Positions 39,143 to 42,639 of a stretch of 64,000 bases of DNA are shown one piece after another (position 1 is the stretch's first letter; the number at the start of each line of letters is the position of its first letter). Source of the DNA: Promethearchaeota archaeon (lineage in GTDB: Archaea; Asgardarchaeota; Lokiarchaeia; Sigyniarchaeales; SOKP01). Below the pieces are notes generated by a model. It was not told the DNA's origin and did not search any database. It saw nothing but the letters and a program-made list of their open reading frames with translations. Made by a program: the position numbers and the translations under genes. The stretch covers positions 26,181 to 90,180 of the forward strand of contig JAHLWP010000013.1 of NCBI GenBank assembly GCA_019057865.1, given 5' to 3'.

Positions 39143-40033
39143 TTGAATAAATCTCTTCTATTTGAAAGCTCTAGTTCTGAATCCTGGCAGCATAAAGCAA
39201 TTAAATATTTATTATATAAAACTATTTCAGAAGAAGATAAGAATGTAAGAGAAAAATCTCTTGAAAAGTATTTCAACAATAGAAGAGCAGATATATATTT
39301 TAAGCTTCATTCTGGACAAGAAATCGTAATAGAAGTTCAAAATTCTAATATATCGGTAAAAGAAATCATTAAAAGAACTGAAGATTATAATAAAAAGGGG
39401 ATTTATGTATTATGGATATTACATGGTAAAGGAAATTGTGTAGCCTCACCAAAGGTTCCTAAAGATGATAAAAAAGTTAGAATTAGTACTGCTGAATCTT
39501 TTTTACACAAAATATATGGTGGGAGAGTGTATTATGTTAACCTTAACTCTTCAAGACAAAAATTAATAATTTCTACTCCGTTTGCTCTACATTTCTCATA
39601 TTCCTCAAACAAGAAATATCGAAGAATGTTTCGTGCAAAATATGATAGCTATTTTATTCGAAATGCAAATTTTTGTCTAATTCCAAGTTGGAGTCTCTTA
39701 TGTGTAAAATACAACGGTTTCAAAATAGCAAGGTTTTATGATAAAAGCATTAAAAGTGTTTTAAAAAATTCAATTTTTAATTTTGTTATAAAAAAGACGA
39801 AAAAAAACTGTAATAATTGTAGAATATCATTTAAGAAGCAGAGAAGTTGTTCAATAAATCAAGATTGTAATTTTAAATCATATAATAATAAGAAGTTAAT
39901 AAAAATAATTATTAAATGCTTCACTAAGAAATATGGAAAATATTTTATTTTAGAATCGATATTAGATTTAATCAAAGAAAGAAAAATAGATTTTAACAAA
40001 AATTATATTGTTAAAAAACTAAAACGAGTATAA
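39143..40033 (+). CDS. CoiA-like PD-(D/E)xK nuclease
   Basis: H..K, E....RRADI, IEVQNS, RT..Y...GIYVLWI. Confidence 0.75.
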   Translation: MNKSLLFESSSSESWQHKAIKYLLYKTISEEDKNVREKSLEKYFNNRRADIYFKLHSGQEIVIEVQNSNISVKEIIKRTEDYNKKGIYVLWILHGKGNCVASPKVPKDDKKVRISTAESFLHKIYGGRVYYVNLNSSRQKLIISTPFALHFSYSSNKKYRRMFRAKYDSYFIRNANFCLIPSWSLLCVKYNGFKIARFYDKSIKSVLKNSIFNFVIKKTKKNCNNCRISFKKQRSCSINQDCNFKSYNNKKLIKIIIKCFTKKYGKYFILESILDLIKERKIDFNKNYIVKKLKRV

Positions 40034-40166
40034 TTATTTATATTTTCATTGAAAGAAGTCCTAAAATTTAATTATCTTGAGTTAAATGTAAATTGAATTT
40101 AAAATTTCAGTTTAAATATAGATATCTTTTTTTGTCATTTTTTTCAAGTGAAAAAAAAGGAAATTC

Positions 40167-40173
40167 TTAAATA
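40167..40173 (+). promoter_or_regulatory. Putative TATA box with A-rich upstream element for the ncRNA candidate
   Basis: gaaaaaaaaggaaattcTTAAATA, about 25-30 nt upstream of the structured region. Confidence 0.4.
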
Positions 40174-40202
40174 CTAGCTAAGTACATATTTTATATGTAA
40201 GA

Positions 40203-40374
40203 ACACATAAAGATCGGAATGCCATGATAGCAAAATATATTCTTATACCTAATGCCGAGAAATCGGTAAAATACCTCAACCCTTAACCCTGTTATTAGAT
40301 AAATACAGTCTCCTCTTTTTAAAATTTTTATTGTATCATGGATTCCGGTTTTTACCTACTTCTTTATTTTGTGT
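40203..40374 (+). ncRNA. Putative structured non-coding RNA
   Basis: 23-bp closing stem 40209-40233/40331-40353, GAAA-capped hairpin 40254-40267, CU-rich single-stranded parts. Confidence 0.6.
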
Positions 40375-40475
40375 ATCGCATAAAAACTTATTATAGGTTT
40401 CTCTATTGAAATATTAATATTAAAAAATAAAGAAATTATTTTAAGTGATAAATAAATATTAAATAATGGTTTATT

Positions 40476-40667
40476 ATGATTCCAAAATCTTTAATTGAGA
40501 AGTTAGTACAAAAAGAAGTATACATTTATGTAAGAAATCAAAGTCGAGAATTTGCTGGGATAATTCAATCTATTACTGATGAGGAAGTTATAGTACTCGA
40601 GAATAAGTATAATAATCTAGTTTATATTCCAATATCTGAAGTCGATGTAATCACTGAAAGAAGATAA
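40476..40667 (+). CDS. Sm/LSm-like small protein
   Basis: 63 aa; helix + 'KEVYIYVR...FAGII.SI...IVLE...LVYIPISEV.VI' Sm-fold pattern. Confidence 0.65.
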   Translation: MIPKSLIEKLVQKEVYIYVRNQSREFAGIIQSITDEEVIVLENKYNNLVYIPISEVDVITERR

Positions 40668-42174: not shown

Positions 42175-42639
42175 TTGAGGTTTAAGATGTCTGAAATTAA
42201 AAAGATCCAATTAAGAAATGGCATGGAAATTGATTTTGACAAGAAAGCGCCAACTACTCTTTATGAGATGATTATCAGCGAAGTTTTAATTCCCAAATAT
42301 AAAGAAAATGAAGATTGGAATTTATCTTTAAACATTATAATTGAGGAAATGAACCGTCTTATTACTAAATATGATCTAAGCCCAAAATTAAAATTAGGGT
42401 TGCTTAATCAAGTTGAGGAACATTTGGATAAAGATATAGAGGAATTAACGGGTGTTGATAAAATCGAAATATTATTCTTAAATATGGATGATTATGTTGA
42501 GGATATAAGAAGCCTTATACTTGCTGGTAAAGATAAAGAAGAACTTCGTACTAGTATGGCACGAGTAATAATGCCAATGACTCTTTTTGAATTATCTGAG
42601 CTTTTTATTTATTTGGGAAAAAGAACTTTCTTAAAATAA
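42175..42639 (+). CDS. Hypothetical protein
   Basis: Acidic helical ORF; real start probably ATG 42187 after GAGGT. Confidence 0.7.
   Translation: MRFKMSEIKKIQLRNGMEIDFDKKAPTTLYEMIISEVLIPKYKENEDWNLSLNIIIEEMNRLITKYDLSPKLKLGLLNQVEEHLDKDIEELTGVDKIEILFLNMDDYVEDIRSLILAGKDKEELRTSMARVIMPMTLFELSELFIYLGKRTFLK

Follow-up and report, generated by a model that had tools for sequence, protein, structure and literature searches.

The locus considered here lies directly upstream of a small Sm-like gene, and it raises the question of whether it encodes an RNA and, if so, whether that RNA acts on the adjoining gene or elsewhere in the genome. A sequence-only reading had proposed a structured RNA with loops complementary to Shine-Dalgarno (SD) type motifs, either as an sRNA forming a module with the Sm-like gene or as a switchable leader. 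The window, i.e., the whole stretch of 64,000 nucleotides that was analysed, belongs to a genome that is 99.7% complete (G000). The features of the locus are collected in Table 1.

Anatomy and fold of the RNA gene

The RNA gene is approximately 160 nt long. The elements listed in the earlier reading were located in the sequence: the TATA-like box, both stem arms, the GAAA hairpin and the C/U tracts. Two others are present here but not kept elsewhere. The CTGT/ACAG hairpin needs an extra A peculiar to the source genome (TACG in homologs), and even the closest relatives lack the 3' arm of the alternative pairing. The fold is better than expected by chance (z -3.3; 1/200 shuffles). The closing stem P1 and hairpin P3 covary across 29 homologs; assessed by pair counts, 15 of 22 pairs were altered on both sides (0/500 shuffles), and slid controls were far below. 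The locus is a structured RNA, as had been suggested. Module A (40234-40251) and most of module B (40270-40302) show no variation among 29 diverse homologs, around 46 loop bases being near-invariant, and the loop contains four quasi-repeats A-N-(A/C)-C-C-U spaced 7 nt. The RNA of genus g18 is without the inner hairpin and has a few substitutions. Module C is a possible Sm/LSm site.

A conserved operator and TATA box, a terminator-like tract, and neighbours that differ between loci in kind and in strand mark this as a stand-alone gene. The operator is found 5' of the TATA box, in most of the 101 loci at a distance of 6-10 nt, and from this position it is probably an activator site. A 20-aa peptide was considered and rejected: the 20-codon frame is not kept, its AUG varies and the AUACCU-AUACCU spacing occurs in all three frames, so the gene is non-coding. 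Three short contigs on 40197-40283 came from one sequencing run of uncertain type and no contigs from three others, an outcome that speaks neither for nor against transcription.

Table 1. Positions of the RNA gene, its control elements and the adjoining gene in the window.
Feature	Position	Strand	Remarks
Palindromic operator, consensus TTT(G/T)TC-N4-GA(A/C)AAA	40140..40155	+	Near-invariant in 101 homologous loci
TATA box, purine-rich BRE-like stretch just 5'	40166..40173	+	TTTAAATA/TTTATATA kept at similar distance in homologs
sRNA body	40197..40360	+	Putative 5' end from TATA spacing; putative 3' end in pyrimidine tract
Closing stem P1, 5' arm	40209..40233	+	Fold; compensatory changes
Module A, invariant, with first AUACCU	40234..40251	+	Invariant columns; intron junctions of homologs after 40245, 40246
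Hairpin P3	40254..40267	+	Covariation; loop variable, GNRA not kept; missing in genus g18
Module B, invariant	40270..40307	+	40281-40307 antisense to TFB leader G000:C75
Module B intron junctions (homologs)	after 40277, 40278, 40279, 40284, 40285, 40286, 40291, 40295	+	Insertions in relatives
Module C, CUCCUC and U-tracts	40308..40329	+	About 90% conserved; lengthens TFB duplex in one genome (L471)
Closing stem P1, 3' arm, then pyrimidine-rich terminator-like tract	40331..40353	+	Fold; covariation
63-aa Sm/Hfq-fold protein	40476..40667	+	Weak DUF6897/MM0924-family matches; neighbour in this clade only

Distribution and identity

The RNA is single-copy in G000. Within one Lokiarchaeia family, a DNA search recovered it in 118 of 134 genomes, including a few weak matches that arose by chance, and a covariance model recovered it in 106 of 126, nearly always as one copy. 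It is thus present in about 85% of the family's genomes, spanning 13 genera. In the sister family and the other orders searched it was not found by DNA search, covariance model or inspection of the HDAC locus, two weak matches being spurious; viral contigs held no exact match to the core. Records with the exact core were almost all Asgard MAGs, mostly Promethearchaeota (Lokiarchaeia), Loki_b32 among them. One record labelled as a Nanopelagicaceae bacterium (L210) also carries the RNA and is probably a mis-binned contig. In one genome (G099; L069, L144) there are two diverged copies, of which one retains the TFB-pairing 3' part and loses the middle repeats, and in another (G155; L087) the gene is duplicated in tandem. 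A MITE, named beforehand as an alternative, is refuted, since almost every genome has a single copy and none of the dispersed copies of such an element.

A scan against Rfam gave no match, in line with the earlier reading, which did not recognise the RNA as SRP, RNase P or tRNA. The genes for SRP RNA, RNase P RNA, 16S, 23S and a permuted 5S rRNA each sit elsewhere in G000, and the RNA is therefore none of these. A Y RNA was set aside because the Ro60/TROVE protein (PF05731) was not found in G000. An rRNA-guiding RNA of C/D, H/ACA or U3-like type was likewise rejected, as no boxes were seen and the best duplex with 16S was equalled by 22 of 200 dinucleotide shuffles. Complementarity to 23S, 5S, SRP and RNase P RNAs was at background.

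Introns in homologous loci

Insertions of 28-38 nt are carried by 28 of 108 distinct loci. The 29 insertions occupy ten junctions, all inside the invariant modules, and their excision gives back the family sequence exactly; the copy in the window is intron-free. A four-base exon segment that stops two bases short of the cut is paired with a four-base intron segment that stops two bases short of the 3' cut. This central helix is perfect (4/4) in 22 insertions and 3/4 in seven, with the mismatch always at the first position. Among the first 21 insertions, 15 were at 4/4 against a shuffle-null mean of 0.6 (maximum 5 in 20,000), and the reverse strand gave 2. The body of the intron forms its own fold, and AA terminates 27 of the 29 introns; the outer exon helix is missing, which makes this a relaxed bulge-helix-bulge (BHB) motif.

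This geometry identifies the + strand as the RNA strand, and introns of BHB type imply splicing by EndA. We infer that the + strand is transcribed and spliced, and that the exact sequence of the loop would matter. Asgard genomes possess mostly (alpha-beta)2-type EndA and have gained many tRNA introns (10.64898/2026.10.13.758758), and the archaeal BHB substrates given in PMC7714728 are tRNAs, rRNAs, one mRNA and one 5' UTR. As a separate observation, the 5S rRNA gene of the family (G000:C63:32300-32440, minus strand; L311-L322; L359) looks circularly permuted inside its terminal stem, scores only 25-33 bits with Rfam, and has BHB-type inserts of approximately 30 nt in some genomes.

Predicted target in a TFB leader

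The invariant loop was scanned against all 2781 leaders of G000. The top-ranking leader (1/2781, -35.0 kcal/mol) belongs to a TFB paralog of the PRK00423 family (G000:C75, start codon 68123), followed by a runner-up at -23.4 kcal/mol, while the mean over the 2781 leaders was -7.9 (sd 3.3). The duplex comprises 27 bp with two 1-nt bulges and joins RNA positions 40281-40307 to leader positions of about -38 to -10. The unpaired probability of the seed is 0.79, and net binding with the structures of both molecules counted is about -9 kcal/mol at 37 C. TFB-like genes number about a dozen in G000, and a second paralog among them (C47; L411:1272-2177) ranked sixth (-20.5); no orthologs of the C47 type were retrieved from metagenomes.

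The complementarity extends well beyond the genus of discovery. Among 53 related TFB leaders from 13 genera, 28 fell within the top 1% and 41 within the top 5% of a background energy distribution taken from one genome, and 9 of the 13 genera, which are related to each other, had at least one top-1% leader. Averaged by genus over the 12 other genera, the energy was -19.1, compared with -12.1 when the RNA and -12.3 when the leaders were shuffled (0/500 each). In the sister family, which is without the RNA, nineteen TFB leaders were at background (-3.4 to -12.8). The ranges coincide too: the RNA was found in 118 and the TFB clade in 131 of 134 genomes of the family, and at that threshold the clade was found in 0 of 14 genomes of the sister family. 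In G099 the syntenic RNA copy is altered 3' of the core, and it is with these very bases that the TFB leader of the same genome pairs, through 21 contiguous bp (-30.6, vs -24.5 for the consensus RNA). Clear covariation of this kind was seen in one genome, own-RNA matching being overall only weakly better than matching to other RNAs (mean rank 0.38).

The TFB leaders differ among themselves: separate genera match separate stretches of the loop, and the perfect runs are 10-18 nt long. An RNA that stays invariant while its leaders vary suggests more than one target, e.g., other TFB paralogs. A strong site is missing in about a quarter of the related leaders (e.g., L434, L442, L445, L463 and L477). 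For genus g18, the site of the closest TFB lies about 70 nt upstream, an SD-overlapping site being found on another paralog; the leader of a C77-type paralog of that genus (L417, L419-L421) pairs with the RNA at -25. Complementary leaders on other TFB paralogs suggest target switching among paralogs. Module A is invariant and no pairing partner was identified for it, which counts against the RNA being a repressor of TFB.

Conserved TATA boxes are located roughly 90-175 nt 5' of the TFB start codons, a placement that should put the pairing site inside the 5' UTR. Pairing peaks at -21 to -9, which is the SD region, and in most leaders the duplex overlies this region (78-95% coverage at -18 to -10). 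The earlier proposal of an sRNA with loops complementary to SD-type motifs is in this way borne out in a specific form, as a loop against the SD region of a TFB paralog. A general anti-SD sponge was rejected, since the modules favoured leaders no more strongly than did shuffles with matching composition and GAGGTAT was not above SD plus background. The upstream regions of the TFB genes (leaders and promoters; L429-L477) also contain repeated GTGTGT/ACACA and TTTT..AAAA motifs, possibly protein-binding sites.

From these computed duplexes we consider it probable, at roughly 0.7, that a trans-acting sRNA represses the translation of a TFB paralog. This repression is read from the position of the site and would act through SD masking, as with Methanosarcina mazei sRNA41 and sRNA154 (PMC5867862). 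The same site could serve activation of translation or stabilisation of the mRNA, by opening leader structure or masking a nuclease site. The TFB leader of G000 can fold over part of the site, small hairpins flank it in some leaders, and M. mazei sRNA154 stabilises some targets while blocking others (PMC5867862). With the SD region itself under the duplex in most leaders, and the leader's own structure weak (-7.3 kcal/mol), we regard a positive effect as unlikely.

Other functions considered

A second alternative, compatible with the TFB target, is that the transcript is a precursor from which EndA releases the invariant core (40246-40302) as a 31-60-nt circle, the working RNA. At about three quarters of the loci, module A could combine with the sequence that follows the core into an h-B-H motif resembling an anticodon arm, its bulge being 3 nt long. 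Invariance stops at the predicted 3' cut, the g18 core has the usual intron size (31 nt), and the 5S gene of the family appears to be released in similar fashion. However, the central helix has a predicted probability of about 0.001, with a local hairpin winning over it, the bulge length varies in about a fifth of the loci, and several TFB duplexes run past the predicted cut. A circle as the working form is accordingly quite improbable.

The quasi-repeats might instead be units that titrate a protein, so that the RNA would be a decoy or scaffold of CsrB/6S type and its match to TFB secondary. Four such units at regular spacing and an invariant module A without target would fit, as would a co-regulated protein. 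The operator of the RNA gene recurs at a gene for an 88-aa protein, where it precedes the TATA box in all 30 orthologs from this genus, compared with 34 of 2897 background genes (1.2%); outside the genus it is above threshold in only 3 of 18. In G000 this gene (C55:24381-24647, equal to L355:2882-3148, minus strand) has two tandem operator sites. Its product, found in 122 of 134 family genomes with one weak match among 14 of the sister family, has the same range as the RNA. It is a four-helix protein with six paralogs in G000, and fold searches gave only generic helical bundles. We treat it as a lead for co-regulation with the RNA and as a candidate partner. Some leaders of the 88-aa gene (L406, L364, L374) pair moderately with the RNA. 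An operator at the 16S promoter was dismissed as a chance match in G000 that is not conserved. Known decoy RNAs vary in sequence, the 88-aa protein is without a recognisable fold family, and a decoy would leave the conserved, turnover-tolerant complementarity to TFB leaders unexplained. We therefore hold a decoy or scaffold to be distinctly improbable.

A template RNA for a telomerase-like or DRT-like reverse transcriptase (RT) was suggested by tandem AACCCU resembling the vertebrate telomerase template, the ring-plus-hairpin layout and the one RT gene in G000. For want of a co-occurring RT this is already largely refuted and very improbable: RVT_1 was found, with the query used, in only 21 of 89 family genomes, G000 has no product repeats, and its RT looks like a sporadic fusion of DRT/retron type. 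The RT gene itself (L261:259-3339; G000:C11) encodes a 1026-aa protein with a methyltransferase-like N-terminus and a DRT3a/retron-like RT; it is sporadic and likely defence-related.

A role in cis, as leader or switch for the Sm-like gene, or an operon of the two, has a negligible chance: the gene is adjacent and co-oriented in the source genome and three to four close relatives, yet adjacency holds in 5-6 of 108 loci, inverted in one, the downstream strand is random and the alternative pairing is not conserved. In detail, the Sm-like gene is the downstream neighbour in four loci, lies inverted upstream in one and is on the same contig in a sixth genome, while its orthologs mostly have no such RNA upstream. 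Gene order thus gives no support to the proposed module. A switchable leader is refuted, as the gene that follows the RNA shares its strand in 51 loci and has the opposite one in 49, and the alternative pairing is not kept. The rarity of the adjacency and the random strand show the RNA to be neither leader nor operon partner of the gene. The protein itself has the fold that had been proposed for it: structure prediction gave an Sm/Hfq fold (pLDDT 94, TM 0.76 to Hfq). Four genes of the LSM family are located elsewhere in G000. In L022-L030 a paralog of the Sm-like gene has, 50-60 nt 5' of its start, a conserved motif ATCTAATGAAGGTAAG with modest loop complementarity (-10 to -17), which could equally be a DNA operator.

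Two other neighbours recur. A 154-aa protein of no known family (window 42175-42639) is encoded by the commonest downstream neighbour (28 loci), and several leaders of its gene pair moderately with the loop (-16 to -19). A gene for a CoiA-like PD-(D/E)xK nuclease (window 39143-40033) is directly upstream of the RNA in about half of the loci, and several orthologs look stop-broken. As an obligate partner the nuclease was rejected, since the query used did not find it in g18, g21 and g26, all of which bear the RNA.

Proposed mode of action

Under the preferred reading, repression of a TFB paralog in trans, an activator at the palindromic operator would switch on the RNA's own promoter, and the closing stem would guard both RNA ends while keeping the loop exposed. 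The invariant loop is then predicted to pair with the 5' UTR of the family-specific TFB paralog across the SD region, a pairing that is computed and conserved. Blocked translation initiation would be the most likely result, leading to less of that TFB and to altered promoter usage. In intron-bearing copies, EndA and RNA ligase would have to splice to yield the family sequence, judging from the intron geometry. In a crude comparison, duplex energies of spliced and unspliced RNAs showed no consistent direction.

A wider scheme can be put forward tentatively. One activator may induce both the RNA and the small helical protein, the RNA may silence an alternative TFB, and the introns in the seed may let the tRNA-splicing machinery gate basal promoter selection, in the manner of a sigma switch; the working RNA may here be an excised circle. 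To our knowledge, how an archaeon chooses among its TFBs is an open question, and the present results suggest control over this choice at the RNA level. An Asgard regulatory RNA gains a named, conserved and testable predicted target within the basal transcription machinery. The range of EndA-type introns is extended from tRNA, rRNA and rare mRNAs to a predicted regulatory RNA, which has gained them repeatedly, at ten junctions within about 50 bases. The gene, being compact and single-copy, could also be used to study how such introns arrive, which is an open question (10.64898/2026.10.13.758758).

Comparison with known systems

In its closed ring with a pyrimidine-rich loop and in short motifs the RNA resembles telomerase RNA, Y RNA, U7 snRNA and 6S RNA. 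These likenesses are just 6-10 nt long, and they come with no co-occurring RT, no TROVE protein in G000 and no Rfam match. Bacterial multi-target sRNAs tied to sigma factors or regulons include DsrA and RprA acting on rpoS, Spot 42, GcvB and FnrS. Like these, the Asgard RNA has a regulated promoter of its own, an invariant single-stranded seed and predicted leader-level control of a promoter-selection factor; unlike these, it concerns TFB rather than sigma, its predicted effect is repression over the SD, and it has introns.

The introns agree with archaeal BHB introns in tRNA, rRNA, one mRNA and the HVO_1309 5' UTR (PMC7714728, PMC6125680) and with Asgard tRNA introns (10.64898/2026.10.13.758758) in their length of approximately 30 nt and the 4-bp central helix with the 5' exon. 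An intron-internal helix, many independent positions and a lineage with (alpha-beta)2-type EndA are shared as well. They differ in the missing outer exon helix and in their host, a predicted regulatory sRNA, which is absent from the substrates in the cited papers.

Close parallels are also sRNA154 and sRNA41 of M. mazei (PMC5867862), likewise trans-encoded archaeal sRNAs with anti-RBS loops masking ribosome-binding sites. These two act on metabolic genes and a specific regulator, whereas the predicted target of the Asgard RNA is a basal factor, its duplex is longer (up to 27 bp) and the RNA itself persists across 13 genera; homology is not claimed, there being no Rfam match. RBS-masking sRNAs as such are already known, while this gene belongs to no catalogued family, and a literature search of incomplete coverage found no earlier report of it. 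What is new, in comparison, is a basal transcription factor as predicted target, the family-wide invariance of the RNA and the repeated gain of tRNA-type introns.
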